From an uncultured Acidobacteriota bacterium (lineage in GTDB: Bacteria; Acidobacteriota; Thermoanaerobaculia; UBA5066; DATFVB01): 64,000 nt of DNA. Shown piece by piece: positions 1,896-63,069 of the stretch; positions within the stretch are counted from its first letter, which is position 1; the number at the start of each line of letters is the position of its first letter. The stretch lies in NCBI GenBank assembly GCA_963714035.1, contig OY970224.1, positions 1,375,688 to 1,439,687 of the forward strand, in the 5' to 3' direction. A program made the position numbers and the translations under genes. Under the pieces are notes generated by a model. That model searched no databases. It saw only the letters and a list, made by a program, of their open reading frames with translations, and was not told where the DNA came from.

Positions 1896-2413
1896 TCCGC
1901 GGGGGCGCGGTCGTGCCGCTGCTCCTCGCCGCCGCGTTCGCGCCGCGGCCGGCCGGCGCCGACGCCCGATGCGCGGCACGGCCGGAGACGTCGCAGTTCG
2001 ACTTCTGGCTCGGCGAGTGGAACGTCGGCCCGACCACCGGCCAGCCCGACGACGGGACGCGCGCCTTCAGCCGCGAAGAGAAGATCATCGGCGGCTGCGT
2101 CCTCCTCGAGAACTACGAGGAGCCGGGAGGCTACAGCGGGAAGAGCCTCAATTTCTTCGACCCCGTCCGGGAGAAATGGCGGCAGATGTGGGTCGACAGC
2201 GGCGGGAACACGAGCGAGTTCGAAGGCTCGTTCACCGGCGGCGCGATGCGATTCGAAGGCGAGTCCCACACGGCATCGGGCAAGCGCGTCTTCCGCCGGC
2301 TGACCTTCACGCCGCTGTCTCCCGACTCCGTCCGGCAGCGATCCGAGGCTTCGCCCGACGGGAAGACGTGGAAGGTCAACTACGACTACACGTACACGAG
2401 ACGGAAGCGTTAG
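1862..2413 (+). CDS. Secreted protein of unknown function (DUF1579-like), paralog 2
   Basis: SQFDFWLGEWNV...CVLLENY...WRQMWVDSGGN parallels paralog 1 motif for motif. ATG 1862 overlaps paralog 1 by 34 nt. Alternative GTG start at 1892 (GTGA overlap with paralog 1 stop) gives a cleaner signal peptide. Confidence 0.65.
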   Translation: MAHPLLAKKVVIRGGAVVPLLLAAAFAPRPAGADARCAARPETSQFDFWLGEWNVGPTTGQPDDGTRAFSREEKIIGGCVLLENYEEPGGYSGKSLNFFDPVREKWRQMWVDSGGNTSEFEGSFTGGAMRFEGESHTASGKRVFRRLTFTPLSPDSVRQRSEASPDGKTWKVNYDYTYTRRKR

Positions 2414-10488: not shown

Positions 10489-10969
10489 CGGTGAGCGTGG
10501 CGACGGACTTCAACGCCTCCCGGGTCGCCGAGAGCGTCAGACTGCGTTTCCCGTCCGGGCTGCGGAGAAGCAGCGTGTGCCCGTCGTCCGTCTTCATGTC
10601 CATCGCGGTCGTCCAGCCGGCGAGCTTCCCCTGGTAGAACTTCGCGACGTCGTCGGGCCAGTCGGAGGTTTCGATCGTCGCGGCGGTCGGGCCGTTGCGC
10701 GTGTCGACGGAGACCGCGACGTGGGCGCCCGGGTACATCGGGATGTCCTTCGGGAACCCGGCGGGGAAGCTCCCGGACGGGGCGGCGGGCATGGCCGCCG
10801 CGGTCGCGGTCCCGTCCACCGAGCGGATCGTCACGGTCTTTGCCGAGCGGTCGATCTCGACGTCCGTTCCGCCGGCGGATCCGGCTGCCGCCACCGTCTC
10901 GTTCTTCCGGCAGGCCGGCAGGGCCGCCGTGAGCAGAACACCGAGGATGACGCAGATTCGCTGGAGCAT
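10475..10969 (-). CDS. Hypothetical lipoprotein
   Basis: Signal peptide ending ...LTAALPAC (lipobox-like). No recognisable domain. Convergent with the S9 peptidase; 14-nt overlap of the 3' ends. Confidence 0.45.
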
Positions 10970-17406: not shown

Positions 17407-18855
17407 ATGGCCGAAGTTCCGAGTCTCTCCAGCTTCGTCGGCGGCGTTTTCCGCCCTCCGGCGCAGGCCGGCTTCGTCGACGACGTCAACCCTTCCGACG
17501 CCTCCGACGTGATCGCGCGCGTGCCGGCGGGCGATCCGTCCGACGTGGATGCCGCCGTCGAGTGGGCGGCGGGCGCGCTCCCCGCCTGGCGCGGCCGGAC
17601 CGGGCCGCAGCGGGCCGAAGCGCTCTGGGCCTGGAGCGACGCGATCGCGGCCCGGCGCGAAGAGATCGCGCAGATGATGGCGCGCGAGGTCGGAAAGCCG
17701 ATCAGCGAGGCGCGCGGAGAGGCGGCGAGATGCGTCGCGATCCTCCGGTACTACGCGGGCGAATCGGTGCGCGAGATCGGCGAGGTCATTCCCGCGCAGG
17801 CCGCCGGCGCGCTGCAGTTCACGCTTCGGGAGCCTCTCGGCGTCGTCGCGCTCATCACTCCGTGGAATTTCCCGACCGCGATCCCGCTCTGGAAAACCGC
17901 TCCGGCGCTCGCTTTCGGGAACGTCGTCGTGCTGAAGCCCGCCGAAGCCGCGTCCCGCTGCGCCGTGCTGCTCGCGGAAACTGCCGCGGCGGCGGGAATT
18001 CCTCCCGGCGTCTTCAACGTGGTCCTCGGCTCCGGCGGGAAGATCGGTCCCCCGCTCGTCGGGCACGAGCGCGTCCGGGCGGTGAGCTTCACGGGCTCCG
18101 GCAACGTCGGCGCGCAGATCGCGGCCGCGGCGTCGCGGCGGAACATCCGCTACCAGACCGAAATGGGGGGGAAGAACGTCGTGATCGTCGCGCCCGACGC
18201 GGATCTCGATCTCGCCGCGACGCTCACCGTCGCCGGCGCGATGCGCTACGCGGGGCAGAAGTGCACGGCGACGAGCCGCGCCGTCGTCGACCGCCGGGTG
18301 CGCGACGCCTTCCTCGCGAAGGTCCGGGACCAGGTCGACGCTCTCGTGCTCGGCCCGGTGACGGACCCGGGGGCCGCCGTAGGCCCGCTCATCAGCCGCG
18401 AATCACAGGAGTCAATCGGTCGCGCGCTCGCCGGCGCGGCGCCGGAAAGCGTTCACGGCGGGAGACTCCCCGCCGGAGAGGCATGGTCCCGAGGGTTCTT
18501 CTGCTCGCCGGCCGTCGTTCAGAACGCCGATCCCGACTCTCCGATCGCCCGGGACGAGCTCTTCGGTCCCGTCCTCGCGACGTTCGAAGCCTCCGATCTC
18601 GACGAGGCAATCGCGCTCGCCAACCGGACCGAGTACGGGCTCTCGGCTTCCCTGTTCACGCGCGACATCAAATCGGCGCTCGCGTTCATCCCGAAGATCG
18701 AGGTCGGCCTCGTCCGGATCAACGGCGACACGACCGGGGTCGATCCGCATGCGCCGTTCGGCGGGATGAAGGGCTCGAGCTCCGGGAGCCGCGAGCAGGG
18801 CCCGGCCGCGCGCGATTTCTACACCGAGATCAAGACGGTCCAGATCAATCCGTGA
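17407..18855 (+). CDS. NAD(P)-dependent aldehyde dehydrogenase; by context 2-oxoglutarate semialdehyde dehydrogenase
   Basis: ALDH family motifs (ITPWNFP, catalytic GQKCTA, ELGGK-like EMGGKN, FTGSGNVG). Context assignment only. Confidence 0.8.
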   Translation: MAEVPSLSSFVGGVFRPPAQAGFVDDVNPSDASDVIARVPAGDPSDVDAAVEWAAGALPAWRGRTGPQRAEALWAWSDAIAARREEIAQMMAREVGKPISEARGEAARCVAILRYYAGESVREIGEVIPAQAAGALQFTLREPLGVVALITPWNFPTAIPLWKTAPALAFGNVVVLKPAEAASRCAVLLAETAAAAGIPPGVFNVVLGSGGKIGPPLVGHERVRAVSFTGSGNVGAQIAAAASRRNIRYQTEMGGKNVVIVAPDADLDLAATLTVAGAMRYAGQKCTATSRAVVDRRVRDAFLAKVRDQVDALVLGPVTDPGAAVGPLISRESQESIGRALAGAAPESVHGGRLPAGEAWSRGFFCSPAVVQNADPDSPIARDELFGPVLATFEASDLDEAIALANRTEYGLSASLFTRDIKSALAFIPKIEVGLVRINGDTTGVDPHAPFGGMKGSSSGSREQGPAARDFYTEIKTVQINP

Positions 18856-19083
18856 TGTTGCTGTCGAGAGTGCTCATCGGCAGCTCACCGTCGAGAGCCT
18901 TCGTCGGCGTTGGAAAATTCGAAATCCGAAACGCCAGACTCGAACCAATCGCGAAAACCGAATGACCGAAATCGCAAAGCGGGACCCCGTTTCGAGCTTC
19001 GATATTTGGATTTGTTTCGGATTTCGAAATTCGGACTTCGAATTTTGGATGCCTCGAGCGCCGCGGTCGGGCGAACGCCACCG
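18856..19083. promoter_or_regulatory. Unusual low-GC intergenic region with multiple TTCGAA-centred palindromes and long imperfect inverted repeats upstream of the hydroxyproline epimerase gene
   Basis: aaattcgaaatccgaaac ... gtttcggatttcgaaattcggacttcgaatt; reverse-complementary arms ~18 nt long. GC content far below the ~70% window average. Confidence 0.35.
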
Positions 19084-20031
19084 ATGAAGCTTCCCGAGAA
19101 GATCCGCGTAATCGACTCCCACACCGAGGGCGAGCCGACCCGCGTCGTCGTCGAGGGATGGCCGCCGCCCGCGGGCGCGACGATGGAAGAGCGACGCCGG
19201 GACATGAAGGCGAACTTCGATCCCCTTCGACGCGCCGTCCTGTGCGAACCGCGCGGGCACGAGGCGGTCGTCGGGGCGCTGCTCACGCCGCCCGTGCACG
19301 ACGGATCGCTCGCCGGCGTCGTCTTCTTCGACAACGCCGCTTATCTCGGGATGTGCGGCCACGGAACGATGGGGGTCGTCCGGACGCTCGAATACCTGGG
19401 GCGCCTCGCGCCGGGCCCCGTCGCGCTCGACACGCCCGCTGGCACGGTTTGTGCCGAGCTCGCCGTGGACGGCTCCGTCACGATCGAGAACGTCCCGGCG
19501 TTCCTGCACGCCCGGGACGTCTCGGTCGAGGTGCCGGGCGTGGGCCGCGTGACCGGCGACGTCGCGTACGGCGGAAACTGGTTCTTCATCACGCCCTGGG
19601 AGCCTCCGCTCGTGGCTTCCGACATCGACGAGCTCACGCGGGTCACGCGCGCGATCTCGGAGGCGCTCCGGCGGGACGGGGCGACCGGCGCCGGCGGCGC
19701 GGAAATCGATCACATCGTGCTGTTCGGCGAGAGCGACCGTCCCGACGCCGACCGCAAGAATTTCGTGCTTTGCCCGGGAAACGCGTACGACCGCTCGCCG
19801 TGCGGCACCGGAACGTCGGCGACGATGGCGATGCTGCACGGGCGCGGACGCCTCGCCCTCGGCCAGGTCTGGCGGCAGGAAAGCATCATCGGCAGCCTTT
19901 TCCAGGGCTGGCTCTCCGCGCGGGGCGATGCCCTCGTGCCGCACGTGCGAGGGACGGCGTTCGTGACGGGAGAGGCCACCCTGCGCTTCGATCCGCGAGA
20001 CCCGTTCCGGCTGGGGATTCCGCCGGCATGA
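19084..20031 (+). CDS. 4-hydroxyproline 2-epimerase (proline racemase family)
   Basis: IRVIDSHTEGEPTRVV N-terminus. Both catalytic Cys contexts present (LGMCGHGT and SPCGTGTSA), i.e. Cys/Cys = epimerase/racemase type. Strongly resembles Pseudomonas HypE/LhpA as recalled. Confidence 0.85.
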   Translation: MKLPEKIRVIDSHTEGEPTRVVVEGWPPPAGATMEERRRDMKANFDPLRRAVLCEPRGHEAVVGALLTPPVHDGSLAGVVFFDNAAYLGMCGHGTMGVVRTLEYLGRLAPGPVALDTPAGTVCAELAVDGSVTIENVPAFLHARDVSVEVPGVGRVTGDVAYGGNWFFITPWEPPLVASDIDELTRVTRAISEALRRDGATGAGGAEIDHIVLFGESDRPDADRKNFVLCPGNAYDRSPCGTGTSATMAMLHGRGRLALGQVWRQESIIGSLFQGWLSARGDALVPHVRGTAFVTGEATLRFDPRDPFRLGIPPA

Positions 20032-20167
20032 TCCGGCCGCGTTTCGAAGCCCGAAACCGTTTCGGAGCTCGGGAGGCCGGCGTTTCGTGTATTGTTTCGA
20101 GGCCGGTGTTGCGGATCCCGACCTCCCGGCGGGGGGCGCGTCCGTGTCGACTCCGGGATCGCCGGGC

Positions 20168-21286
20168 ATGACCCCGGACTCCTTCGACGCGATCGTCGTC
20201 GGCGCCGGGATCGTCGGGGCCGCCTGCGCCGAGGCTTTGTCGGCCGACGGAATGCGCGTCGCGGTCCTCGACGCGGCGTTCCCCGGCGGCGGCACGACGG
20301 CCGCGGGAATGGGCCATCTCGTCGCGATGGACGACTCCGAGCCCCAGCTCGCGTTGACGGGCTGGTCGAATCGGCTCTGGAAGGAGCGGGCAAGCTCCCT
20401 GCCCGCGGCCTGCGAGATGGATCCCTGCGGAACGCTCTGGGTCGCCGAAGACGGCCCGCAGATGGCCGAAGTCGAACGGAAGCGCGAGCGCTACGAGTCC
20501 CACGGCATCGCCGCGGAGGCTCTCGGACCGGCGGAGCTCGCGCGCGCCGAGCCGAACCTCCGCCCGGGCCTCGCGGGCGCGCTCCGGGTCCCGGGAGACG
20601 CGGTCCTGTATCCCCCGGGGGCCGCACGCGCGCTGCTCCAGTCGGCGCGAGCGCGCGGAGCGATCGTGCGGGCGGGGACGGAGGTGCGCGCGATCGGACC
20701 CGGCGAGGTCGAAACGGCGGCCGGAAACGTTCGCGCGCCGGTCGTCGTCAATGCGGCCGGTCCGCGCGCCGCCGAGCTCACGCCCGGGCTTCCCATCGTC
20801 CCGAGGAAGGGCCATCTGGTCATCACCGACCGCTACCCCGGTTTCTGCCGCCACGAGATCGTCGAGCTCGGATACCTCGCGAGCGCGCACAGGATGACCG
20901 CGGAATCCGTCGCCTTCAACGTCCAGCCGCGGGCGACCGGCCAGATCCTCATCGGCTCGTCCCGCGAGCTCGTCGGCTGGGACGCGGCCGTCAACCCGCG
21001 GGTCCTTTCGAAAATGCTCTCGCGCGCCCTCGATTTCCTTCCTTCTCTTCGCGCGCTCTCGGCGATCCGTACCTGGACCGGCTTCCGCCCGGCCACTCCC
21101 GACAGGCTTCCGATCATCGGCCGATGGCGGGGCGTGGACGGCCTCTGGATCGCGGCGGGACACGAGGGCCTCGGAATCACGACGTCGCTCGGCACGGGCC
21201 GGCTGATCGCGGACCTCGTCGCGGGGCGGCGGCCGCCGATCGACCCGGCGCCGTTCGATCCGAACCGCTCCGCCGCGGCCGCATGA
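20168..21286 (+). CDS. FAD-dependent oxidoreductase, beta subunit of a D-hydroxyproline dehydrogenase-like (opine-oxidase/HcnC-type) complex
   Basis: Dinucleotide fold DAIVVGAGIVGAACA at the chosen ATG 20168. ORF table starts at 20087, which would add 27 poorly conserved residues. DAO-family body. Confidence 0.75.
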   Translation: MTPDSFDAIVVGAGIVGAACAEALSADGMRVAVLDAAFPGGGTTAAGMGHLVAMDDSEPQLALTGWSNRLWKERASSLPAACEMDPCGTLWVAEDGPQMAEVERKRERYESHGIAAEALGPAELARAEPNLRPGLAGALRVPGDAVLYPPGAARALLQSARARGAIVRAGTEVRAIGPGEVETAAGNVRAPVVVNAAGPRAAELTPGLPIVPRKGHLVITDRYPGFCRHEIVELGYLASAHRMTAESVAFNVQPRATGQILIGSSRELVGWDAAVNPRVLSKMLSRALDFLPSLRALSAIRTWTGFRPATPDRLPIIGRWRGVDGLWIAAGHEGLGITTSLGTGRLIADLVAGRRPPIDPAPFDPNRSAAAA

Positions 21287-21537
21287 ACGAGTTTCCCCGC
21301 GTCCCGATCGTCGTCGACGATCGCCCCATCTCGGCGGAGGCGGGAACGACCGTCGCCGCCGCGCTCGTCAACGCGGGCGTCTCGGCTTTTCGCGGCTCGG
21401 TCACCGGCGCCCCGCGCGGGCCGCTCTGCGGAATGGGGATCTGCCACGAATGCCGCGTCACGATCGACGGCATCGCGCAGCGCCGCTCGTGCATGATCGA
21501 AGTGGCCGCGGGAATGCGGATCGAGACCCGTGGCTGA
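21283..21537 (+). CDS. 2Fe-2S ferredoxin-like small (gamma) subunit of the three-component oxidase
   Basis: 84 aa with Cys cluster CGMGICHECRV...C. ATGA overlap with the upstream gene. Confidence 0.75.
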   Translation: MNEFPRVPIVVDDRPISAEAGTTVAAALVNAGVSAFRGSVTGAPRGPLCGMGICHECRVTIDGIAQRRSCMIEVAAGMRIETRG

Positions 21538-22810
21538 ATCGCTCGCCGCGGACGTCGCGGTCGTGGGGGGTGGCCCGGCGGGAATCGCCGCCGCCGCCGT
21601 CGCGGCCGAGGCGGGAAAGCGGGTGCTGCTCCTCGAGGAGAACCCTCGCCCGGGCGGGCAGATCTGGCGGCATCGGGCAGGCGCGATCCCCCCGAAGGCT
21701 CGGCGCTGGATCGACCGTCTGGCCCGTTCGGGAGCGGTCCGCGTACCCGGCGCGGCCGTGCACGCGATCTCGGGAGCGTTCACGCTCTCCGCCGAAAGCG
21801 CCGGCGCGGCGATCACCGTCTCCGCGAAGACGCTCGTCGTCGCGACGGGCGCGCGCGAGCGATTTCTCCCGTTTCCGGGCTGGACCCTCCCGAACGTGAT
21901 CGGGATCGGCGGAGCGCAGGCGCTGCTGAAATCGGGCGTCTCTTTCTCCCAACGCCGCATCGTGATCGCCGGATCGGGTCCCCTCATCCTTCCCGTCGCG
22001 GCGTCGCTCGCGCGCGCCGGAGCCCGAATCGCCCTCGCCGCGGAGCAGGCGCCGGGCGGCGCCGTGATTCGCTTCGGCCTCGGGCTGTGGCGAGCTCCGG
22101 GACTGCTCGCCGACGCCGCGGGTTACCGCCGCGCCTTTCTCCGCACGCCCTACCGGTTCGGAACATGGGTGCTCGAAGCGCGCGGACGCGACCGGGTCGA
22201 GGAGGTCGTCGTCACCGACGGCAACGTGACGTGGACCGAGCGCTGCGATGTCCTCTGCACGGGATTCGGGCTCGTTCCGGCGACCGAGCTCGCCCGCCTC
22301 GCCGGATGCCGGATCGACGGCGACGCCGTCGCGGTCGACGAGCGGCAGGGCACATCCGTCGAGGGCGTTTTCTGCGTCGGCGAGGCATGCGGCGTCGGCG
22401 GCGTGGAGAAGGCGCTCGCCGAAGGCCAGGTCGCCGGGTGCGCCGCCGCCGGCCGGTCGCCGCGGCGCGGACCGGTAGCCGCCGCGCGCCGCGGTCGCCG
22501 CCACGCCGCCGCGCTCGATCGGGCGTTCCGGCTCCGGGAGGAGCTCCGTTCCCTTCCCCGGCCCGACACGATCGTCTGTCGCTGCGAAGACGTCCTGACC
22601 GCCGCACTCACCGCCGCCGGCTCCGCGCGGGAGGCGAAGCTCGCGGTCCGGGCGGGAATGGGCCCCTGCCAGGGGCGCGTCTGCGGCCCCGCGCTCCAAT
22701 ACCTTTTCGGCTGGGAATCGGATACCGTCCGCGTGCCGATCTCCCCCGTTTCGATCGGGACGCTCGCGGCGATCGACGCCGAAGCGCCTCCGCGCAAGGA
22801 GGGCGAATGA
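21530..22810 (+). CDS. FAD/NAD(P)-binding pyridine-nucleotide-disulfide-type oxidoreductase, alpha subunit (HcnB/OoxA/LhpF-like)
   Basis: VAVVGGGPAGIAAA and a second Rossmann stretch IVIAGSGPLILPVAASL; C-terminal Cys-rich segment (IVCRCEDV, GPCQGRVCGP). GTG start 21530 overlaps the gamma-subunit stop by 8 nt. Confidence 0.8.
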   Translation: MAESLAADVAVVGGGPAGIAAAAVAAEAGKRVLLLEENPRPGGQIWRHRAGAIPPKARRWIDRLARSGAVRVPGAAVHAISGAFTLSAESAGAAITVSAKTLVVATGARERFLPFPGWTLPNVIGIGGAQALLKSGVSFSQRRIVIAGSGPLILPVAASLARAGARIALAAEQAPGGAVIRFGLGLWRAPGLLADAAGYRRAFLRTPYRFGTWVLEARGRDRVEEVVVTDGNVTWTERCDVLCTGFGLVPATELARLAGCRIDGDAVAVDERQGTSVEGVFCVGEACGVGGVEKALAEGQVAGCAAAGRSPRRGPVAAARRGRRHAAALDRAFRLREELRSLPRPDTIVCRCEDVLTAALTAAGSAREAKLAVRAGMGPCQGRVCGPALQYLFGWESDTVRVPISPVSIGTLAAIDAEAPPRKEGE

Positions 22811-23709
22811 ACCGGACCGACTGGAAAGGGGTCTTCCCCGCGATCACGACGCCGTTCCGCGAAGGGCTCGCCGTCGATTTCGATTTCCTGCGCGAGCACG
22901 TCCGCTGGCTCCTCGAAAAGGGATGTTCGGGAATCGTTCCGCTGGGATCGCTCGGGGAATCCGCGACGCTCACGCTCGACGAGAAGCTCGCGATCCTGCA
23001 GACCTGCCGCGAAGCGGCCGGCGGCCGGGCGCCGGTGATCGCGGGAGTCGCCGGCCTTTCTACGGCCGAATGCGTCGCCCTCGCCCGGGGCGCGGAGGAG
23101 ACGGGGTGCGATGGCCTGATGGTCCTCCCCGCCTACGTGTATCGCGGGGACACCCGCGAGAGCGAGGCGCACGCCGCCGCCGTCCTCGACGCGACGGCCC
23201 TCCCCTGCATGCTCTACAACAACCCGATCGCCTACGGGACGGACTTCCTGCCGGCTCAGATCGCGACGCTCGCGCGCCGGCACCCGAACCTCCACGCCGT
23301 CAAGGAATCGGCCGGCGACGTCCGGCGCGTGACGGGGATCCGCGAGATCGCCGACGACCGCCTCGCGATCTTCGTCGGCATCGACGACATGATCGTCGAG
23401 GGGATCGCGGCTGGCGCCGTCGGCTGGATCGCCGGCCTCGTCAACGCGTTCCCGGCGGAGTCCGTCCTTCTCTTCGATCTCGCGATGCGCGGCGATCACG
23501 AGGAGGCGAGGCGACTCTACGAATGGTTCCTTCCGCTCCTGCGGCTCGACACGGTCCCGAAGTTCGTCCAGCTCATCAAGCTCGTGCAGCAGGAGGTCGG
23601 GCGCGGCAGCGAGCGCGTCCGCCCGCCGCGCCTGCCGCTCACGGGCGAGGAGCGCGAGGCGGCGTTCGACGTGATCCGGGGCGCGGTGCGCGCCCGCGTG
23701 ACGCTCTAA
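22807..23709 (+). CDS. Dihydrodipicolinate synthase family protein; by context delta1-pyrroline-4-hydroxy-2-carboxylate deaminase
   Basis: DHDPS/NAL family fold (GVFPAITTPF, ...VKESAGD... with Schiff-base Lys). ATGA overlap with the upstream gene. Confidence 0.85.
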   Translation: MNRTDWKGVFPAITTPFREGLAVDFDFLREHVRWLLEKGCSGIVPLGSLGESATLTLDEKLAILQTCREAAGGRAPVIAGVAGLSTAECVALARGAEETGCDGLMVLPAYVYRGDTRESEAHAAAVLDATALPCMLYNNPIAYGTDFLPAQIATLARRHPNLHAVKESAGDVRRVTGIREIADDRLAIFVGIDDMIVEGIAAGAVGWIAGLVNAFPAESVLLFDLAMRGDHEEARRLYEWFLPLLRLDTVPKFVQLIKLVQQEVGRGSERVRPPRLPLTGEEREAAFDVIRGAVRARVTL

Positions 23710-41910: not shown

Positions 41911-42091
41911 CCGGGACTCGGCCAAAGCGGCCCTCGTCCGGGCCCGGGGGGCTTCGCGCGGAGCGGTCCGGGCGTCGGTCCAGGAGTGGAAGAAGCTCGA
42001 CACCTCGCGGAGAGTGGAGTTCGTCGCGGCGCTCCTCGCGGCGCTCGCCGCGGCTTCGGGATCGGTCGCCGCCGCGCGGAAGAGAAAGTAG
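41711..42091 (+). CDS. Small basic Lys/Ala-rich protein (histone H1-like / AKP-repeat N-terminus)
   Basis: Strong RBS GGAGACGGAGG before ATG 41711. High third-position GC. N-terminal RKRTAPRKKAAPRKKTASRRK followed by an Ala-rich helical region. Confidence 0.5.
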   Translation: MPESTTVAAPENARRARKRTAPRKKAAPRKKTASRRKSASGLPALLDRLSAQASRAGAAIAAGAAGSRDSAKAALVRARGASRGAVRASVQEWKKLDTSRRVEFVAALLAALAAASGSVAAARKRK

Positions 42092-42228
42092 GACGCGCGC
42101 CGCGGCGCCGTCACGAGTCCGGCAGTCGAAAGTCCAAAGTCGGTTTCCGAACGGTGACCCGGGACTCTCGACTTTCGACTCGGAACTGAGCGACTCGCGA
42201 ACCACTCGTCACTCGTCCCTGAGGAACT

Positions 42229-42268
42229 CGCAACGGCTCGTGGCGTCCGCGCCCTAATGCGCGGACGC
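42229..42268. other. Perfect 17-bp inverted repeat (gctcgtggcgtccgcgc / gcgcggacgccacgagc) with 6-nt loop cctaat; the loop contains the TAG stop of the TlpA-like gene
   Basis: Direct reading of 42229-42268. Possible bidirectional terminator or protein-binding palindrome; no clean U-run. Confidence 0.4.
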
Positions 42269-42730
42269 CACGAGCTTCAGAAACTGTTCGGTCGTCCGGC
42301 GGCCGGCCGCGCTCGCGACCGGCTTTCCGTCCCTGCCGTACACGATGGTGTGCGGAAGCTCCCCCTCCCATTTCGGGTCCACGGCATCGATGAACCGCTG
42401 CGGGTCCTCGGATGACTCGATGAAGCAGCGGAACGGGTTCCCGATGCCGTCGAGCACGGCGGGAACGACCGAATCCTTGAACTTGAGCGAATCGGCGGAA
42501 ACGAGCAAGACGTCGAAGGAGCCCTTCCCTTCCCGCCACGCGCGAGCGAGCGAAGGCAGCTCTTCCCGGCAGGGTTCGCACCAGGTCGCCCAGAAGTTGA
42601 CGACGAGGGGCTTTCCGCGATGCGGGGCGACGACGTCGGAAAAGTAGCGTTCCGGGGTGACCGCGGCGATCGCGCGCCGGGGGGGCGCCGGAGCCGCCGC
42701 GGCCCCGGCGAGCAGGAGCGCGGCGATCAT
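42254..42730 (-). CDS. TlpA/ResA-like thiol:disulfide oxidoreductase (thioredoxin fold, CxxC)
   Basis: VVNFWATWCEPCREELP active site; N-terminal signal/anchor. Confidence 0.8.
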   Translation of the reverse strand: MIAALLLAGAAAAPAPPRRAIAAVTPERYFSDVVAPHRGKPLVVNFWATWCEPCREELPSLARAWREGKGSFDVLLVSADSLKFKDSVVPAVLDGIGNPFRCFIESSEDPQRFIDAVDPKWEGELPHTIVYGRDGKPVASAAGRRTTEQFLKLVASAH

Positions 42731-43314
42731 CCGCGCTTGATGCTGCAGCCGAAGGCCTTCGTCGCGGCGACCGGGACCGGACGGCCGGCCAGCAGCGCGT
42801 CGAGCGCGTTCCGAAGGTCGGGCGACCGCACCGCCGCCGGATCGTCCCGGTTCTCGTCGATCCGGCCGTGGTAACGAACCATGCCATCGCGACCGACGAC
42901 GAAGATCTCGGGAGTGTGCTCGGCGCCGTAGGCGTCCGCCGTTCGGCTCCCCTGGTCCTTCACGATCGGGAACGTGAATCCGTGTTCCTTCGCGTGCGAG
43001 GCGATCTCGGAAACCGGCTCGTTGACGTTGCTGTTCACGCCGATGAAGCGGACCCCCCTCGAGCCATATTCTTTCTCCAGCGCCTGCATCCGCTCGTCGT
43101 AGGCGTTCGACACGGGACAGCGCGTCGAGATGAACATCACGACGGTCGCGGCGTGCGCCTGCCGTTCGCCCGCGAGCGACATCGACCCGGAGCCGCTCGC
43201 CAGCGGAAGCGAGAATTCCGGCGCCCGGTCGCCGGGCTTGAGAGCCGCCGATCCGAGAACCGGAAGTCCGAAGATCAGGGCGGCGGCGAGGACGTTCGTG
43301 ACGGTTCGTTTCAT
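42727..43314 (-). CDS. Secreted thioredoxin-fold redoxin family protein (CxxS-type motif TRCPVS)
   Basis: Signal peptide MKRTVTNVLAAALIFGLPVLGSAA; redoxin pattern VVMFISTRCPVSNAY...IGVNSN...PIVKDQ...TPEIFVVGRDG. Start chosen at ATG 43314; ORF table begins 43374. Confidence 0.7.
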   Translation of the reverse strand: MKRTVTNVLAAALIFGLPVLGSAALKPGDRAPEFSLPLASGSGSMSLAGERQAHAATVVMFISTRCPVSNAYDERMQALEKEYGSRGVRFIGVNSNVNEPVSEIASHAKEHGFTFPIVKDQGSRTADAYGAEHTPEIFVVGRDGMVRYHGRIDENRDDPAAVRSPDLRNALDALLAGRPVPVAATKAFGCSIKRG

Positions 43315-43487
43315 GACTTCCTCCGAAATGCTAACAACGCCGCCGATGGGCGGGGAATTCCTTGGAGCGGCCACACATGAACGCAGCCGGAACGGAACCT
43401 AACGAGCCAACCCGCTCCGAGGATGTCGGCAATCGCCGTCTGGAGTGGATGCCGGCCGGCCGTTGGAAGCTGCCCGGGAATGGCCCC

Positions 43488-43612
43488 CGTCGAGCGCCGG
43501 AGCGGTCGAGCCGAGAAGGCGAGCCGCGAAGGTCAGATCGCGGAAAGTCTCGCCGAAGTAATCGAGGCGAGGAGGTCCGCGATCTGGGAGGCCGCAGCGT
43601 TCCAGTCGCGGT
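43488..43612. repeat. Structured REP-like repeat, family A, diverged copy 4 (compensatory changes in both helices), embedded in the 3' end of the deiodinase-like ORF
   Basis: Outer helix cagatcgcgga/tccgcgatctg and inner helix ctcgcc/ggcgag replace caccgcgcgat/atcgcgcggtg and ctccgc/gcggag of copies 1-3. Flanks (gagcggtcgagccgagaaggcgagccgcgaagg ... ggaggccgcagcgttccag) align with copy 3. Confidence 0.75.
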
Positions 43613-44270
43613 GCGACGCGCGCGATGCCGACGGAAACCGTCTGGCGAGCCAGGCCTCGAGCTCCTCGGGATGGAAGCCGAACGGCCCGGTTTTCCCCTT
43701 GTACGCGACGCGTCCGTTCTCGTCGACGACGTAAATCCGCTCGGGCCACCCGGCGTAGAGCGCGTCGGCCCGGTTGTCCATCGCGTCGACGGCGAGCGGA
43801 ATCCGAAAATGGAACCTTTTCGTGAAATCCGCCGCGATCGCGATCCGCTGCCCGAGCGTGTGCGGCTGCGGATAGCAGATCCCCTGGTCGTCGTTGGCCT
43901 TCATCTTCCACTCGTCGATGGGATGGGCCTCGCGGATGTAGACCGTCAGGAATTCGACGCGGCCGCGGTAGCGATCGTAGATGTCCTCGAGCCGCGCGAC
44001 CGAGCGGCGAAACGGCGGTCAGGTGAAGCTTCCGAACACGAGGACGAGCGGCCGCGCCCCGATCCGTTCGGCGAGACGCGTCGTGCCCGCCCCGGCGACG
44101 GCGTGCAGCACGACGTCGGGCGCCGGGCTTCCGACGCGCAGCGCCCCTTCGCGGCGGGTGTCGTACCGGAGCATGCCGATGATGTTGGACGGCCCGATCT
44201 TCGCCACGACGAAGGCGGCGAGGCCGACGACGACCGCGGCGACGAGCAGGAGCACGCGGCGAAGCGTCAT
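43533..44270 (-). CDS. Putative selenoprotein: iodothyronine deiodinase-like thioredoxin-fold protein with in-frame TGA (Sec) at 44019-44021
   Basis: ATG 44268-44270, N-terminal TM anchor (LLLVAAVVVGLAAFVVA), then ...RPLVLVFGSFT-TGA-PPFRRSV..., in the same frame continuing YIREAHPIDEWK...VVDENGRVAYKG. FGSxT(U/C)PPF and YI.EAHP.DGW-like motifs are the deiodinase signature as recalled. Listed ORFs 44019..44948 (3' part) and 43533..43904 are the two halves. The C-terminal ~25 codons derive from repeat A copy 4. Confidence 0.55.
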
Positions 44271-44400
44271 GGCGGGAAGTATTCTACTCTCCGTCCTTCC
44301 GTCGGGCGACCCTTCCGGATCTTCGTGGCAGCGGGCTTGCTGCGTTTTCCCCGGGGCGGAGCAGCGTCGCTCCGTCCGAATCCGCCAGAGGGGGTATTTC

Positions 44401-44985
44401 ATGGCGAACAGAATCGACGGAATGCGGGTCGCGATCCTCGCGACCGAGGGGTTCGAGCAGTCGGAGCTCCTCGAGCCGAAGAAGGCCCTCGAAACCGAGG
44501 GCGCGAGAGCGGAAGTCGTGTCGCCGAAAGACGGCGAGATCCGTGGCTGGGCAAAGGACGACTGGGGAAAGAAGGTGAACGTGGACGTCCTTCTCGAAGA
44601 GGCGGACCCTTCCTCGTACGACGCGCTCGTCCTGCCGGGCGGGGTCATGAACCCGGACCGGCTCCGCATGAACCCGCGCGCCGTCGCGTTCGTGAAGAGC
44701 TTCGTCGACGCCGGAAAGCCGATCGCGGCGATCTGCCACGGTCCCTGGACGCTGATCGAAGCCGGAGGCGTGCGCGGACGGCGGATGACGTCGTGGCCTT
44801 CGCTCCAGAGCGATCTGCGAAACGCGGGCGCCCGATGGACCGACGAGGAAGTGGTCGTCGACAACGGAGTCGTGACGAGCCGGAAGCCGGCCGACCTCCC
44901 GGCGTTCAACCGGAAGATGATCGAAGAGTTCGGAGAGAGACGACACACGCGCGCCGGCGCGGCGCCGGTCTCGACCCGGGCATAG
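44401..44985 (+). CDS. DJ-1/PfpI family protein (general stress protein 18-like)
   Basis: MRVAILATEGFEQSEL..., nucleophile elbow AAICHGPWTL, ...VVVDNGVVTSRKP. Confidence 0.85.
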   Translation: MANRIDGMRVAILATEGFEQSELLEPKKALETEGARAEVVSPKDGEIRGWAKDDWGKKVNVDVLLEEADPSSYDALVLPGGVMNPDRLRMNPRAVAFVKSFVDAGKPIAAICHGPWTLIEAGGVRGRRMTSWPSLQSDLRNAGARWTDEEVVVDNGVVTSRKPADLPAFNRKMIEEFGERRHTRAGAAPVSTRA

Positions 44986-45019
44986 GTCTTGCTCTTTCCA
45001 CGGTGGAGAGGGGGTTCCC

Positions 45020-45172
45020 ATGCTGCTGACCATCGCCATCATCCTGTTCATCGCCTGGGTCCTGGGGTTCTTCGCGTTTCACGTCACCGCCGGCTTCATC
45101 CATATCCTGATCGTGCTCGCGGTGATCTCGTTCGTCGTGCATCTCTTCACCGGCCGCCGATCCGTGGTCTGA
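45020..45172 (+). CDS. Small hydrophobic membrane protein (50 aa; lmo0937-like two-helix peptide)
   Basis: ATG 45020 after GAGAGGGGG; translation MLLTIAIILFIAWVLGFFAFHVTAGFIHILIVLAVISFVVHLFTGRRSVV. Below the ORF-track length cutoff. Confidence 0.45.
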   Translation: MLLTIAIILFIAWVLGFFAFHVTAGFIHILIVLAVISFVVHLFTGRRSVV

Positions 45173-45567
45173 ACGGGCGCCCGTGATCGCCACCGGGAGG
45201 CCGCTTCGGCGGCCTCCCTTTTTCACGTCGGCCTCGCGCTCGCCGCTCCGCGGCTGGAACGCTACGGCCTCCCGGATCGCGGACCTCCGGAGCAATGAAA
45301 CCGTCGCGGCTCGCCGAACGAGCGACTCGACCGCGCCACCGCCAGCCCCTTCGCCGACGCTCCCGCTCCCGCAACGCGGAGCTTTCGCCGATAAGCCCGA
45401 AATCCGCCGCACCGTTTGATCCACATCAGCGTATTCGCCTTGAACCGAGAGTGCGGGCATTCGAGCAGATCAGTCGAGACGCCTCAGCGCGGGCTCTTCG
45501 GTCTCGCCAACGATCACACTGACCTGAAGAAGCCAGCTATTTGGCTCGGGCCGAGCGGGCGGGACTT

Positions 45568-46560
45568 TCACAACAAAGACATCGAAGACCGGCTTTCGGT
45601 CTCGACCTGTTTCATCGTGCACTGCTTCGCCGCCTTGTCCGGCCGCCAGCGAAGGAGCTTCGTCCCGTGGCGGAACCGGCCGCCCGTGAACGCGTCGTAC
45701 CGCACCTCGACGACGAGCTTCGGCTTCAGGGGCTTCCAGTCCGCGCTCCGCTCCGTGCTCCACCGGCTCGGCCCCCCCGGGGCGCGGCCCGTGAACCCGG
45801 GAGCGGCAACGAGCTTCTCGAGAGCCTTCGTGAGGGCGCTCCGGTCCCCTTTCAGTCCCGAGGTGAACCCGACGTGATGGAGCTTTCCGTCGTCGCCGTA
45901 CAGCCCGAGAAGGAGCGAGCCGACCTCTTTTCCTTTCGAGGCGTACCGGAACCCTCCGACGACGCAGTCCGCGGTCCGCAGGCTCTTGATCTTCTGCATT
46001 CCGCTCCGCTCTCCCGACCGGTAGGCGACGTCGACCGCCTTCGCGACGACGCCGTCGAGGCCTCCGCCGACCATCCGGAACCATTCCTTCGCGCGCCCGG
46101 CGTCCCGCGTGGACGGCGAGAGAAAGATCCGATCCTTCCGCCGGAAATGCTTCTTCGCGAAGGCTTCGAGCTTCCTTCGCCGATCCTCGAGAGGACGGTC
46201 GACGAGAGCGCGGCCGTCCTCCCCGACGAGGAGATCGAACGCGATCAGGGCCGCGGGAGTCTCCTTCGCGAGCCGCCGGATCCGGCTTTCGGCCGGATGG
46301 ATGCGAAGGAGCAGATCGTCGAAGGACAGGCCGCCGCCGGCCGGGATCACGATCTCGCCGTCGAGGACGAATCTCGCGGCGCGAATCCCGAGGAGCGAAG
46401 CGGTCACCTCCGGAAAATACCGGCCGAGCGGCTGCCCGCTCTTCGACTGCAGATCGACTTTCTTCCCGTCGCGAAAAACGAGGCATCGGAAACCGTCCCA
46501 TTTCGGCTCGTACTGCCACTCTTCCCCCTCCGGGATGCGGTCGACCAGAAGGGCTTCCAT
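45568..46560 (-). CDS. ATP-dependent DNA ligase (stand-alone LigD-type ligase domain, NHEJ)
   Basis: Adenylation motif I KWDGFR, nucleotidyltransferase and OB-fold pattern (EGIVAK-like DGVVAK, ...WRPDKA). ATG 46558-46560; the rest of the listed 598-aa ORF upstream is out of frame with the real gene. Confidence 0.85.
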   Translation of the reverse strand: MEALLVDRIPEGEEWQYEPKWDGFRCLVFRDGKKVDLQSKSGQPLGRYFPEVTASLLGIRAARFVLDGEIVIPAGGGLSFDDLLLRIHPAESRIRRLAKETPAALIAFDLLVGEDGRALVDRPLEDRRRKLEAFAKKHFRRKDRIFLSPSTRDAGRAKEWFRMVGGGLDGVVAKAVDVAYRSGERSGMQKIKSLRTADCVVGGFRYASKGKEVGSLLLGLYGDDGKLHHVGFTSGLKGDRSALTKALEKLVAAPGFTGRAPGGPSRWSTERSADWKPLKPKLVVEVRYDAFTGGRFRHGTKLLRWRPDKAAKQCTMKQVETESRSSMSLL

Positions 46561-46589
46561 CGGCGGATACGGGGGGCGGATCGGAAGCG

Positions 46590-47525
46590 TCACAGGTATT
46601 CCTCCAGGCGGAATCGCCCTTTCTTCGCCAGGACCGGCGCCCACAGGTCGCCCGTCCGGCGCACGCGGGCGACCACGTTGTCGATGCGGAAGTCCTCGAT
46701 CGCGATCTCCTTCTCGACTTCCTTCCAGGTGACGGGCGTCGAAACGGCGGCCTTCGGAGAAGGGCGAACCGAATAGATCGACGCGAGCGTTCGTCCCCAC
46801 GCGTTCTGGTTGTAGTCGACGAGGACGCGGCGGGCCGGGCGTTTGGCGATCCGGTACTCGGCGGTCGCGAGCAACGGATGCCGCGACGCGATCTCCTGCG
46901 CGAAGCGCTTCGCGAAGCCCCAGACCTCCTTCTGGAGCGGGCCGCGGACGATCGGCACGTAGACGTGGATTCCCCGCGAACCGGTCGTCTTGGCGAAGGA
47001 GGTCATCCCGAGCGACGCCAGCGCCGCGGCGACCGCGAGGGCGGTCTCCCGCACCTGGGAGAAGGACCCCCCTTTCACGGGATCGAGGTCGAAGTGGACG
47101 AAATCCGGGCGATGCACGTCGTCGCAGCGCGCGTACCAGGGGTTGAGGTCGATGCAACCGAGATTGATCGTCCAGAGAAGCGCCGCGAGATCGTCGACGA
47201 CGGGAAAATCGATCACGTTTCCCGAGGCGTGCTCGATCGCGCACGTGCGGATCCACTCCGGCCGCGGGTCGGGAGCGCGCTTCATGAAGAAGAATTCGCC
47301 CCCGGCGCCGTGCGGGTATCTCTTCATCACCATCGCGCGGTCGGCCACGTGCGGCAGGAGCCACGGCGAAATCGCGGCGTAGTAGCGGAGGAGGTCTCCC
47401 TTGGTCACTCCGAGCGCGGGCCAGAAGACCTTCCGCAGGTTCGTCAGCCGGACGCGGCGGCGGCCCGCGGCGACTTCCGCATCGTCGCGGTCAAGCGGGA
47501 TCTCGGGAATGGCGTGACCCTTCAC
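46590..47525 (-). CDS. LigD-type primase-polymerase (NHEJ polymerase domain) as a separate gene
   Basis: VRLTNLRKVFWPALGVTKGDLLRYYAAISPWLLPHVADRAMVMKRYPHG... matches the LigD Pol domain pattern. GTG start 47525 tentative. Confidence 0.75.
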   Translation of the reverse strand: MKGHAIPEIPLDRDDAEVAAGRRRVRLTNLRKVFWPALGVTKGDLLRYYAAISPWLLPHVADRAMVMKRYPHGAGGEFFFMKRAPDPRPEWIRTCAIEHASGNVIDFPVVDDLAALLWTINLGCIDLNPWYARCDDVHRPDFVHFDLDPVKGGSFSQVRETALAVAAALASLGMTSFAKTTGSRGIHVYVPIVRGPLQKEVWGFAKRFAQEIASRHPLLATAEYRIAKRPARRVLVDYNQNAWGRTLASIYSVRPSPKAAVSTPVTWKEVEKEIAIEDFRIDNVVARVRRTGDLWAPVLAKKGRFRLEEYL

Positions 47526-52797: not shown

Positions 52798-53142
52798 GAC
52801 GAGAGTCGCGCCGATACGCGCCGTTATACGGGTCCGTCGGGGCCGTGCCGGCGGCTCGACGTCCGCGCTCCCGGTACGCCTTCACCGCCGGCAGACCCCG
52901 CCGAACCCGTCTTCCAGCACGTCTCGTCGCGCCTTCGCGTTGACTCATCTGGCAGGCAGGACGAAAGATTCGTCTTCGGGCTTACCTCGCCGCGCTTCCG
53001 GTTTCCCCTAACCTGGATTCACCGCCGCCCGGGACCCCTTGGGCCCCTCTTCCAACCCGTTCTCGCCCGCCTCACCGATGCGGCCCCGCTGGCGCAATTC
53101 TTGCATTATTTCCATCGCGCTCGTTTTTTGAAAGGAGAGCCC

Positions 53143-53523
53143 ATGAAGAAGATCCTCGGGATTCTGGTGTCGGTGCTCGCCGCCGCCGCGATGGCGTCGG
53201 GAGCGGAACAGACGTGGCACGGCAAGATCAGCGACAGCATGTGCGGCGCGTCCCACAAGTCGGCGATCGAGCACTCGGGAAAGAAGCTCAGCGACCGCGA
53301 CTGCACCCAGGCGTGCATCAAGGACGGGGCGAAGTACGTCTTCGTCAGCGGCGGGAAGGTCTACGACATCTCGAATCAGGACGAACCCGCGCTGGCCGAG
53401 CACGCCGGCCACAGCGTGTCCCTCAAAGGGGAGATGACCGGCAACTCGATCAAGGTGTCGAGCATCTCGATGGGCAAGAGCGGGAAGACGATGTCCAAGG
53501 AGAAACCCGCCTCGACCTCGTAA
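53143..53523 (+). CDS. Small secreted Cys-containing protein of unknown function (126 aa)
   Basis: RBS AAAGGAGAG before ATG 53143; signal peptide MKKILGILVSVLAAAAMASGA; 4 Cys. Confidence 0.5.
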   Translation: MKKILGILVSVLAAAAMASGAEQTWHGKISDSMCGASHKSAIEHSGKKLSDRDCTQACIKDGAKYVFVSGGKVYDISNQDEPALAEHAGHSVSLKGEMTGNSIKVSSISMGKSGKTMSKEKPASTS

Positions 53524-61515: not shown

Positions 61516-63069
61516 TCACTGGAGATAGCCGAGAGACCTGAGCTTTTCGAGATACTCCTTCCCGGTTTCGGTCGGCCGCTCGGCGGCGGCGGCGCGCCGT
61601 TCGCCGTAGGACCCGACGGATCCCGCCTCGAGAGCTCCGGGCCGGAAGATCCCGGAGCGCGGCGAGCCGGCGAGGTCCCTCGCCGCGGGAATTCCGAGCC
61701 GCGCAAGAGCGGTCGCGGCGATGTCTTCGGGACGGACCGCCGATTCGGCCCGTTCGGCCGCGTGGTCGACGAGCGCCCAGCCGCCGGCGGAACCCGAACG
61801 GCCCGCGTCCGCGACGAGCCAGAGGGCCTCGCCGCCCGCCCGGGCGCGGGCGATCCGCTCGGCGACGAACTCGCGGGCCGCTCGCGAGAGCGGGCCGCCG
61901 TCGATGTCCGCGCCGGGGAGGTAGACGGTCGCGAGCCGCGGACGGACGAGGTCATCGGCCCGCCGGAATGCGGCGATCGCCGCCGCGTCGTCTCCCGCGC
62001 CGTCGCGGGCCCGGAGAGCGATCTCCCGATTTTCGACGATCGTCGCTCCGGGCATCGGCTCCGACGCCCACCAGTTGACCGCGACCGTGGGAATTCCGGC
62101 TCGCGCCGCCACCTCCCAGAACGTCCACGAGCGCCGCTCCGCGGCGGACACCGGGACGCGGGCGGCCGCGCCGGCCCACCGAACGGGCCCTCGAAAGATC
62201 CACCCCGTTCCCGCCGGCGGCGTGAGGGCTGCTCGGCCGAACAGCGAAATCCGCTCGAACGCCGCCACACCGTGGCGCGAGGGGGGAACGCCGGTCGCGA
62301 TCGTCGTCCAGATCTCGGGAGGGGGAGCGGCCGGGCGCCGCCACCGCACGAGCGGCGCGTCCGGGGCGAGCAGCGCGAGCGTTTCGGGAGGAACGCCGTC
62401 GAGCCCCACGACGACGAGAGCGCCGGGTCGCGGCGAGATCGTGAGGGCGGGGAACGCCGCCGAAGGCTCCCGGCGGGATGCCCAGAGAGAGGCGGCGGCG
62501 AGTGTGGCCGCCAGCGCCGCCGCCGCGCCGCGGCGCCACGAGAGCTTCTCCGGAAGCGGCACGTGGCGGCGGAGCGCGAGAGAGAGCGAGGTGGCGCGCG
62601 CGGCCCTCGCGAAGTAGAACGCCGCGACCGCCACGGCCACGAGGGCGATCGCGGGATGCGCCCCGGGAGAGGCCGGAAGGGATCGCACGCCGGCGGTGAA
62701 GAGTCCGAACACGAGCAGGGCGGCGCCGGCCGCCGCGACCAGGGCGGAACGCGCGGGACGGGCGGGCGCCCGCCGGAAGCGGCTCGCGACGAGCGCCGCC
62801 GCGCCGGCCGCGAGGGCGAGCGGCGCCTCGACGGCGAGGAGGACGGCGGCGGCGAGGAATGCGCCTCCCGCCGGCGCCACCGCGCCTCGGGCGGCGAGCG
62901 CGGCCGCCGACGCGACGGCGCAGCCGACCGCCCCGGCCGCCGCCGACGGAAGGATCGCGCCCGACGCCCTTGGAGCGTTGAAGATCGTCCTCTCGATCCC
63001 GGCGTCCAGATACCCCTGCGCGCGCAGGCGCGCGCGGACTTCGTCGAGCGGGGGCGGCGGGTCGCTCAC
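61516..63069 (-). CDS. Polytopic membrane protein with alkaline-phosphatase-superfamily (type I phosphodiesterase-like) domain
   Basis: GTG start 63069 (GTGA overlap with ispA stop). ~7 hydrophobic helices, then LVVVGLDGVPPETL...TIATGVPPSRHG resembling the 34969..37086 protein. Confidence 0.6.
   Translation of the reverse strand: MSDPPPPLDEVRARLRAQGYLDAGIERTIFNAPRASGAILPSAAAGAVGCAVASAAALAARGAVAPAGGAFLAAAVLLAVEAPLALAAGAAALVASRFRRAPARPARSALVAAAGAALLVFGLFTAGVRSLPASPGAHPAIALVAVAVAAFYFARAARATSLSLALRRHVPLPEKLSWRRGAAAALAATLAAASLWASRREPSAAFPALTISPRPGALVVVGLDGVPPETLALLAPDAPLVRWRRPAAPPPEIWTTIATGVPPSRHGVAAFERISLFGRAALTPPAGTGWIFRGPVRWAGAAARVPVSAAERRSWTFWEVAARAGIPTVAVNWWASEPMPGATIVENREIALRARDGAGDDAAAIAAFRRADDLVRPRLATVYLPGADIDGGPLSRAAREFVAERIARARAGGEALWLVADAGRSGSAGGWALVDHAAERAESAVRPEDIAATALARLGIPAARDLAGSPRSGIFRPGALEAGSVGSYGERRAAAAERPTETGKEYLEKLRSLGYLQ

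Follow-up and report, generated by a model that had tools for sequence, protein, structure and literature searches.

A predicted deiodinase-family selenoprotein with an in-frame TGA and a covarying SECIS hairpin in an uncultured Acidobacteriota bacterium

A stretch of 64,000 nucleotides (nt) from an uncultured Acidobacteriota bacterium (GenBank assembly GCA_963714035.1, contig OY970224.1, positions 1,375,688 to 1,439,687; hereafter the window) carries on its minus strand a gene of the iodothyronine-deiodinase family whose reading frame contains a single internal TGA. Judged from this gene and its relatives, the UGA at 44019-44021 is very probably a site of genuine SelB-dependent insertion of selenocysteine (Sec), under the direction of a selenocysteine insertion sequence (SECIS). 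The gene is continuous across the TGA, the codon corresponds to the Sec/Cys position of the family, it is conserved as TGA among the relatives, and it is followed by a hairpin that is conserved with covariation.

A single reading frame across the TGA

The minus-strand frame runs in translation from an ATG at 44270 to the stop TGA at 43535-43533, and the TGA at 44021-44019 is its sole internal stop. A first-pass annotation, made from the letters alone, had described two minus-strand open reading frames (ORFs) in the same frame parted only by this TGA; sequence and translation are as written there, and the read-through product is MTLRRVLLLVAAVVVGLAAFVVA...RPLVLVFGSFT*PPFRRSVARLEDIYDRYRGRVEFLTVYIREAHPIDEWK..., the asterisk marking the TGA. 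With Cys placed at the stop, the family PF00837 (T4_deiodinase) matches residues 45-211, across the TGA, with E 6.6e-35 and a score of 121 bits against a gathering score of 27, covering profile positions 74-236 of 237. When all in-frame TGAs in the window were screened, the codon statistics on both sides of this one were coding-like, and it was the only such case that did not consist of two neighbouring genes. On this reading of the translation, the region is one predicted protein of 245 residues rather than two ORFs.

Conservation of the TGA among related loci

Relatives were collected by scanning one genome per species (GTDB representatives), which returned at least 515 related loci. The best 80 of these were analysed and, together with the window copy, make up the sets of 81 sequences referred to below. 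They represent 80 species, which belong to Acidobacteriota (mostly Thermoanaerobaculia), Planctomycetota, Polyangia and a few further groups, and their tblastn matches cover residues ~3-219 at 52-67% protein identity, a range that holds on both sides of the TGA. The codon at the position of the window's TGA is TGA in 80 of the 80 loci, a conservation far beyond chance, and the residues directly flanking it are identical in 81/81 sequences. More distant protein homologs (labelled P0002, P0003, P0005-P0013 and P0051) have Cys at this site, in the form FGSFT-C-PPF. The placement of the TGA exactly where Sec, or Cys in other homologs, is found had been proposed at first reading and is supported by the alignments: the codon falls on Sec170 of mouse Dio3, a residue replaced by Cys in the construct that was crystallised, and on the Cys of the bacterial homologs.

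A covarying hairpin downstream of the UGA

The 45 nt from the TGA onward were aligned without gaps for the window and the 80 loci. RNAalifold folds this alignment into a helix of 6 base pairs (bp), in which nt 15-20 pair with nt 25-30 (the U of UGA being nt 1) and nt 21-24 form a tetraloop; across the family the hairpin begins 10-11 nt past the TGA. Of the 81 sequences, 79 have GGUC as the apical loop, which lies at 44001-43998 in the window. Compensatory changes, within related sequences of a coding region, occur at three pairs: 15/30 (GC in 55 sequences, CG in 9, AU in 2 and GU in 2), 18/27 (CG in 75 and GC in 3) and 19/26 (UA in 62, UG in 10 and GC in 5). Standard pairing is found in 86.4% of the pair cells, and sliding the 3' partners by 1-3 columns lowers this share to 31-65%. 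For covariation the score is 0.145, compared with 0.050 +/- 0.009 in column shuffles, and 0/500 shuffles reach 0.145. Fisher tests on the three covarying pairs gave p = 1.7e-6, 1.3e-5 and 1.9e-4, without correction for phylogeny.

The loop lies 17 nt from the UGA. Apical loops of bacterial SECIS elements have been published at 16-37 nt from the UGA (PMC10778597), and the spacing here therefore falls within the distances known for such elements. A small apical loop containing G is a further property by which bacterial SECIS elements are recognised (PMC1088965), and the loop here is GGUC above a stem of 6-7 bp. In the window copy, five G-C or C-G pairs are followed by a U.C mismatch, then by a C-G pair that closes the GGUC loop, and the folding energy is -9.8 kcal/mol. 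Compared with the family helix this copy has an additional pair, G14-C31; the mismatch permits an alternative loop of 8 nt, which starts 15 nt after the UGA. The first-pass annotation had drawn gccgc-tcggtcgc-gcggc, a 5-bp stem with an 8-nt loop, and this is the window copy of the family hairpin. It is present at 44008-43991, but it starts 10 nt after the A of the TGA and not about 12 nt as given. The accompanying suggestion of a plausible bacterial SECIS gains from the comparison, because the same helix is the family-wide conserved, covarying and fdhF-like element.

The hairpin also leaves its mark on the protein. After PPFRR the Sec forms encode SVER, whereas the Cys forms encode N-T-G-D, RV and similar residues (PPFRRNT..., PPFRRRV...), and the hairpin is absent at the same position in the four Cys-form genes whose DNA was compared (loci L082-L085). 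As Cys-form genes without the hairpin encode other residues, the conservation of SVER reflects a constraint on the RNA rather than on the protein. Furthermore, two of the compensatory switches alter amino acids (Ser-Val-Glu to Ala-Val-Ala, and Glu to Asp), which is hard to account for without an RNA constraint. This is a clear case of an RNA structure dictating the protein sequence that follows PPFRR. At the codon level, SVER is encoded by UCG GUC GAG CGC, and the compensatory stem changes give A-V-A-R or S-V-D-R.

A close counterpart of the element is the SECIS of fdhF in E. coli K-12 (NC_000913.3), in which the UGA is codon 140 and the GGUC loop occupies nt 22-25. Both elements lie within the ORF directly 3' of the UGA, and the place of GGUC agrees to within one nt (nt 21-24 here). 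They differ in that the upper stem here is a continuous G+C-rich helix of 6-7 bp without a bulged U, and the stem sequences are unrelated. The bulged U contributes to binding of E. coli SelB.

Fold and active site of the predicted protein

Among solved catalytic domains, those of mouse Dio3 (4TR3, E 9.4e-26; 4TR4 is also Dio3) and Dio2 (9H48, E 2.4e-22) match the read-through protein, and the TGA aligns with the residue changed from Sec to Cys in both the Dio3 and the Dio2 crystal constructs. By these sequence matches to Dio structures in the PDB, the predicted fold is settled. Membership in PF00837 is indicated by a score above the curated threshold and by the retained active site and Y-x-x-E-A-H-P-x-D-x-W network.

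Three groups of residues are identical in 81/81 sequences: S81, T83, U84 and P-P-F-R-R89 within F/L79-G-S81-x-T83-U84-P-P-F-R-R89; Y111, E114, A115, H116, D119, E120 and W121; and C132, Y133, Q135, P136, D162 and W175-P-E-R178. The signature FGSxT-U-PPF and the downstream motif YIxEAHPxDxW, both picked out in the first-pass annotation, are conserved in the homologs. The Ser/Thr/Sec/Tyr/Glu/His/Trp network around the selenium (Ser167, Thr169, Sec170, Tyr197, Glu200, His202 and Trp207 in Dio3) is kept, and the roles of the active-site residues in Dio2 and Dio3 have been described (PMC11592359). The loop-D insertion is kept as well, with 20 residues versus 17 in Dio3.

Other parts of the Dio3 active site have no equivalent. 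The distal relay His219 aligns with the invariant Pro136, the carboxylate clamp Arg275 (Lys241 in Dio2) with residue 194, where Pro, Thr, Met, Leu and Val occur, and the distal Cys239 with Ile157. Since His219 and Arg275 are not conserved, the substrate is probably no thyronine. The missing thyronine-specific residues, as aligned, argue against an iodothyronine substrate but not against family membership by homology.

Cys132 lies 48 residues after Sec, and in 77 of the 80 loci no other Cys occurs downstream of Sec; the same position is V, I or L in the nearest Cys-form clade (P0002-P0013). Its location within the loop-D equivalent, which borders the active site, makes it a candidate resolving Cys. 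At the N-terminus, residues 6-23 form an uninterrupted hydrophobic stretch of 18 residues with equivalents in full-length homologs and orthologs, in line with the deiodinase-like anchor described at first reading. The stretch is consistent with a predicted single membrane anchor.

Alternative explanations for the UGA codon

Several observations weigh against Sec insertion at this codon. The window copy alone among the 81 sequences has a U.C mismatch at pair 19/26 (U19.C26), and its hairpin, at -9.8 kcal/mol, is somewhat less stable than that of the family consensus. The 81 nt surrounding the TGA fold no better than shuffled sequence (z = +1.05). No Rfam family matches the hairpin, with the whole window searched at the gathering score and 43850-44150 at E<=10, and these settings returned chance matches to microRNA models only. 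A Pfam scan of ~55 ORFs found no SelA, SelB or SelD domain in the 64-kb window, and ARAGORN found no tRNA in it, hence no tRNA-Sec. Literature searches returned no biochemical evidence of selenium incorporation or activity for this protein or for any bacterial member of the family. On the folding energy, a value for a single sequence is no evidence by itself in a genome of 69% G+C, and the case for the SECIS is consequently a comparative one. On the decoding machinery, ARAGORN found only tRNA-Gly and tRNA-Cys, and no tRNA-Sec, in the flanks of 60 related loci (L001-L060). We assume that the source organism decodes Sec; Acidobacteria include Sec-decoding species (PMC1794560).

Among the rival explanations, a recoding of the UGA to an amino acid other than Sec is unlikely. 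It would involve either a selC*-type tRNA(Cys) that depends on SelB and the SECIS or a suppressor allo-tRNA. The selC* tRNA(Cys) is a possible opal suppressor and acidobacterial allo-tRNAs are possibly nonsense suppressors (Mukai et al., PMC5389517), and the delivered amino acid is not readable from sequence alone. However, the reports of selC* concern anaerobic Firmicutes, Thermodesulfobacteria, Nitrospirae and Proteobacteria, and Acidobacteria are not among them (PMC5389517). The strict alternation of Sec and Cys at a catalytic redox site, combined with an fdhF-type SECIS, is the classical signature of a selenoprotein. For delivery of Cys one would expect a TGC free of the costly constraint of a hairpin, which is what the Cys clade has. 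Both tRNA(Cys) delivery and allo-tRNA suppression are unlikely on this evidence.

It is slightly less probable still that the TGA acts as a true stop, leaving an 83-residue membrane peptide and a C-terminal fragment made separately or not at all. Automatic gene calls do split the locus in this way, and many database entries are C-terminal fragments of 134-153 residues, but the starts chosen by the callers vary from homolog to homolog. The 38 codons that follow the internal TGA contain no ATG, GTG or TTG, and the first ATG is met only past the YIREAHP motif; a sensible restart is thereby ruled out. Both halves of the protein are needed for the thioredoxin fold and for the alignments to Pfam and PDB, and the identity of the residues on either side of the TGA in 81/81 sequences likewise speaks against termination there.

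It is very improbable that the TGA arose through an error of sequencing or assembly, or through a recent nonsense mutation (TGC/TGT to TGA), in what would be a Cys-form gene or a pseudogene. Close Cys-form homologs with FGSFTCPPF exist, and a single base change interconverts the two forms. Against this, the codon is TGA in 80/80 independent assemblies of different species, so it is no error. An independent Logan assembly contains the exact locus, likewise with TGA, and there the gene call ends after 83 residues and is followed by a separate C-terminal call. The covarying hairpin is specific to the TGA forms, and codon statistics are coding-like on both sides of the TGA.

The idea that TGA stands for Trp or Gly throughout the genome, to which the W at this site in several protein calls of the Joint Genome Institute (JGI) might point, is rejected on stop-codon usage in the window: TGA ends 32 of the 48 ORFs of at least 150 residues, this gene included, and as the main ordinary stop it indicates a standard code, while no other coding-like in-frame TGA occurs in the 64 kb and the genome has 69% G+C, unlike the TGA-reassigned lineages known to us.

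Proposed mechanism of insertion and catalysis

For SelB- and SECIS-directed insertion of Sec we infer the following course. The hairpin, 10-27 nt past the UGA, would recruit SelB with GTP and Sec-tRNA(Sec) via its GGUC loop. The UGA in the A site would then be decoded as Sec rather than terminated by release factor 2 (RF2), with a mechanism as in E. coli fdhF. The product would be an oxidoreductase of the iodothyronine-deiodinase family (PF00837), with a thioredoxin fold, a membrane anchor and Sec84 as its catalytic residue. The selenolate of U84, held in S-x-T-U and backed by the Y111/E114/H116/W121 network, may attack a substrate that is oxidised or halogenated. Cys132 would resolve the Se-OH or Se-X intermediate so formed, giving a selenenylsulfide for an external thiol-disulfide reductant to reduce. 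From the sequence relationships, the Sec84-Cys132 selenenylsulfide would be a step in a peroxiredoxin-like cycle, and the substrate is probably other than iodothyronines.

Comparison with known families

Bacterial deiodinase-like proteins were reported by Zhang, Fomenko & Gladyshev in 2005 from the Sargasso Sea metagenome, as 4 Sec and 6 Cys sequences (PMC1088965). The Sec forms were described with a bacterial SECIS, alongside Cys homologs, and a redox function was presumed; thyroid hormones are not expected as bacterial substrates (PMC1088965). Reviews of prokaryotic selenoproteomes from 2022 (PMC9312934) and 2026 (PMC13188914) also include the family. The present clade agrees with it in belonging to PF00837, in having both Sec and Cys forms, and in carrying within the ORF a bacterial SECIS with a small G-containing loop. 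It differs in its motif, which is U-P-P-F here and UxxC in the reviews, a comparison by published motif that may be notational. It differs also in origin: the known sequences were reported from marine plankton, whereas the sources of this clade are Acidobacteriota/Thermoanaerobaculia, Planctomycetota and Polyangia of soil and sediment. It is set further apart by a predicted N-terminal anchor and by the invariance of the Cys that lies 48 residues after Sec.

With the animal enzymes Dio1-3 the clade shares, as predicted, an N-terminal anchor, and also G-S-x-T-U-P-P-F, Y-I-x-E-A-H-P-x-D-x-W and a loop-D of similar length. The eukaryotic SECIS lies in the 3' untranslated region, in contrast to the bacterial type within the ORF found here. 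Relative to Dio3, His219 is replaced by Pro136, Arg275 by Pro/Thr at residue 194 and Cys239 by Ile157, and Cys132 is invariant instead.

The NCBIfam model NF038285 ('deiodinase family protein') gives 205.3 bits with E 1.7e-60, below its cut-off of 250. The match is with the catalytic domain and spans profile positions 177-340 of 347, and the N-terminal ~175 positions have no counterpart here. Proteins of the NF038285 type (P0029, P0030, P0038 and P0040) have Cys-G-P-F where this clade has Sec-P-P-F, and Cys-form proteins named after the model (e.g. P0040, from Gemmataceae) carry EF-hand Pfam domains N-terminal to the deiodinase domain.

There is some likeness to thioredoxin-fold peroxidases of the peroxiredoxin, AhpC-TSA and Redoxin kind. 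Weak Pfam matches to Redoxin (E 5e-6) and AhpC-TSA (E 2e-5) cover the same residues, a catalytic chalcogen is combined with a candidate resolving Cys in both cases, and the Dio structures have been described as peroxiredoxin-like (PMC11592359). These matches, however, lie at or below the Pfam cut-offs, and the deiodinase-specific loop-D and EAHP motif are present here.

Homologs and their database gene calls

A homolog search of 5.8 billion proteins returned three kinds of entry: full-length proteins with Cys at the site (FGSFTCPPF), full-length proteins with Trp at the site, and fragments of 134-153 residues. The Trp entries (P0001, P0004, P0014, P0016, P0025, P0048 and P0050) are JGI calls from pipelines that read TGA as Trp. 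The fragments (P0017-P0036) start at varying points 3' of the site and are curtailed gene calls. Public calls of this gene are systematically wrong in one of three ways, being split (as in L081, 2-328 and 443-694), curtailed with inconsistent starts, or given Trp at the Sec codon.

One metagenome-assembled genome, MFD02199.bin.2.111, contains two Sec-type copies (L006 and L017, on contigs CAVUIX010000013.1 and CAVUIX010000014.1) with near-identical SECIS regions, which may be paralogs or a duplication in the bin. Two Cys-form homologs from Acidobacteria, L082 (4622-5827) and L083 (4795-5963, 6727-7302), are flanked by two or three CMD/AhpD-like genes. A gene for a class-V aminotransferase (cysteine-desulfurase-like) lies nearby, a redox context unlike that of the Sec forms.

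Genomic context

The features of the locus and its neighbours are collected in Table 1.

Table 1. Predicted features of the deiodinase-like locus and of adjacent genes, in window coordinates
Feature	Coordinates	Strand	Basis or remark
Predicted deiodinase-like selenoprotein gene	43533..44270	minus	245 codons including Sec84, then terminal TGA 43535-43533; translation
In-frame TGA, predicted Sec codon, residue 84, motif FGSFT-U-PPFRR	44019..44021	minus	80/80 loci; Dio alignment
Predicted bacterial SECIS hairpin, nt 14-31 (U of UGA = 1)	43991..44008	minus	covariation; GGUC loop
Hydrophobic segment, residues 6-23 VLLLVAAVVVGLAAFVVA, after RR	44202..44255	minus	predicted single membrane anchor, read from translation
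YIREAHPIDEW motif, residues 111-121, at the loop-D edge	43908..43940	minus	equivalent to Dio3 Tyr197, Glu200, His202, Trp207
Cys132 (GIC-YPQP), candidate resolving Cys in the loop-D equivalent	43875..43877	minus	Cys in 81/81 Sec forms
Redoxin/AhpC-TSA gene, CxxS (STRCPVS), signal-peptide-like N-terminus	42727..43314	minus	Pfam Redoxin E 6.2e-18
TlpA/ResA-like thioredoxin-fold gene, CxxC (WCEPC)	42254..42730	minus	Pfam AhpC-TSA and Thioredoxin
DJ-1/PfpI-family gene, divergent	44401..44985	plus	Pfam DJ-1_PfpI E 2e-55

The three consecutive thioredoxin-fold genes that the first reading had pointed out, with the selenoprotein gene in front, are real in the window but do not form a conserved unit. 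With tblastn on flanks of up to 6 kb, the redoxin neighbour was found in 0/80 loci and the TlpA-like neighbour in 1/80, and clustering of the flank ORFs of the 80 loci gave no conserved partner gene. The matches of the TlpA-like gene to the NCBIfam models TlpA and ResA are below the cut-off. Upstream, the selenoprotein and DJ-1/PfpI genes bound an intergenic region of 130 nt (44271-44400), and the DJ-1/PfpI protein has an exact match on the Logan contig ERR10755946_2662963 (3.2 kb). A promoter and terminator scan of 42000-44600 gave nothing informative.

Only one of the 80 loci, L001, is clearly syntenic with the window, its neighbours being 63-83% identical. There a pseudouridine synthase gene directly follows the selenoprotein gene, and both thioredoxin-fold neighbours are absent. 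Compared with L001, the window has extra genes on both sides, namely the two thioredoxin-fold genes downstream (42254-43314) and, upstream (44401-46593), the DJ-1/PfpI gene, a DUF5670 ORF of 50 residues (45020-45172) and an ATP-dependent DNA ligase gene. The LigD primase-polymerase gene and the downstream genes are common to both. LigD, of non-homologous end joining, is encoded in the window by two overlapping minus-strand genes, the ATP-dependent ligase (45568-46593) and the primase-polymerase (46590-47525).

Elsewhere in the window, a plus-strand run of genes at 17407-23709 resembles a catabolic cluster for hydroxyproline or proline derivatives, with genes for an aldehyde dehydrogenase, a proline-racemase-family protein, an FAD (DAO) oxidoreductase, a small 2Fe-2S protein, a pyridine-nucleotide-disulfide oxidoreductase and a DHDPS-family protein. 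At E<=1e-5 Pfam gives no match for four ORFs whose codon statistics are good: 61516-63069 (minus, 517 residues), 10475-10969 (minus, 164), 1862-2413 (plus, 183) and 53128-53523 (plus, 131). The remaining content is ordinary chromosomal, including genes for fatty-acid synthesis, electron-transfer flavoprotein, methionyl-tRNA synthetase, RNase III, LigD, a MacB-type ATP-binding cassette transporter and glycosyltransferases.

Significance for the family

The locus is a further member of an established, computationally defined selenoprotein family. It is a solid confirmation and not a discovery, and it does not change the current understanding of selenoproteins. Its main value lies in fixing a systematic annotation error across many soil-bacterial genomes, as the at least 515 related loci suggest that a mis-annotated selenoprotein is probably present in hundreds of genomes from Acidobacteriota, Planctomycetota and Polyangia.

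A speculative and rather doubtful extension is that the U-P-P-F clade is a selenium-dependent reductive dehalogenase of natural halogenated phenolics, in which Cys132 would resolve Se-X. This idea is drawn from the kept animal active site, loop-D and predicted anchor, and from the occurrence of the clade in hundreds of soil and sediment species. Candidate substrates could be iodo-, bromo- and chlorophenols or halotyrosine-like compounds. If it were true, the deiodinases of thyroid hormone would have their prokaryotic functional ancestor in this clade, and organohalides would be turned over by a new route that is independent of corrinoids. For assigning a function the clade is tractable, as its fdhF-like GGUC SECIS might work in E. 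coli, and the invariant Sec84/Cys132 pair and the natural Cys-form sister clade offer further handles for comparison.

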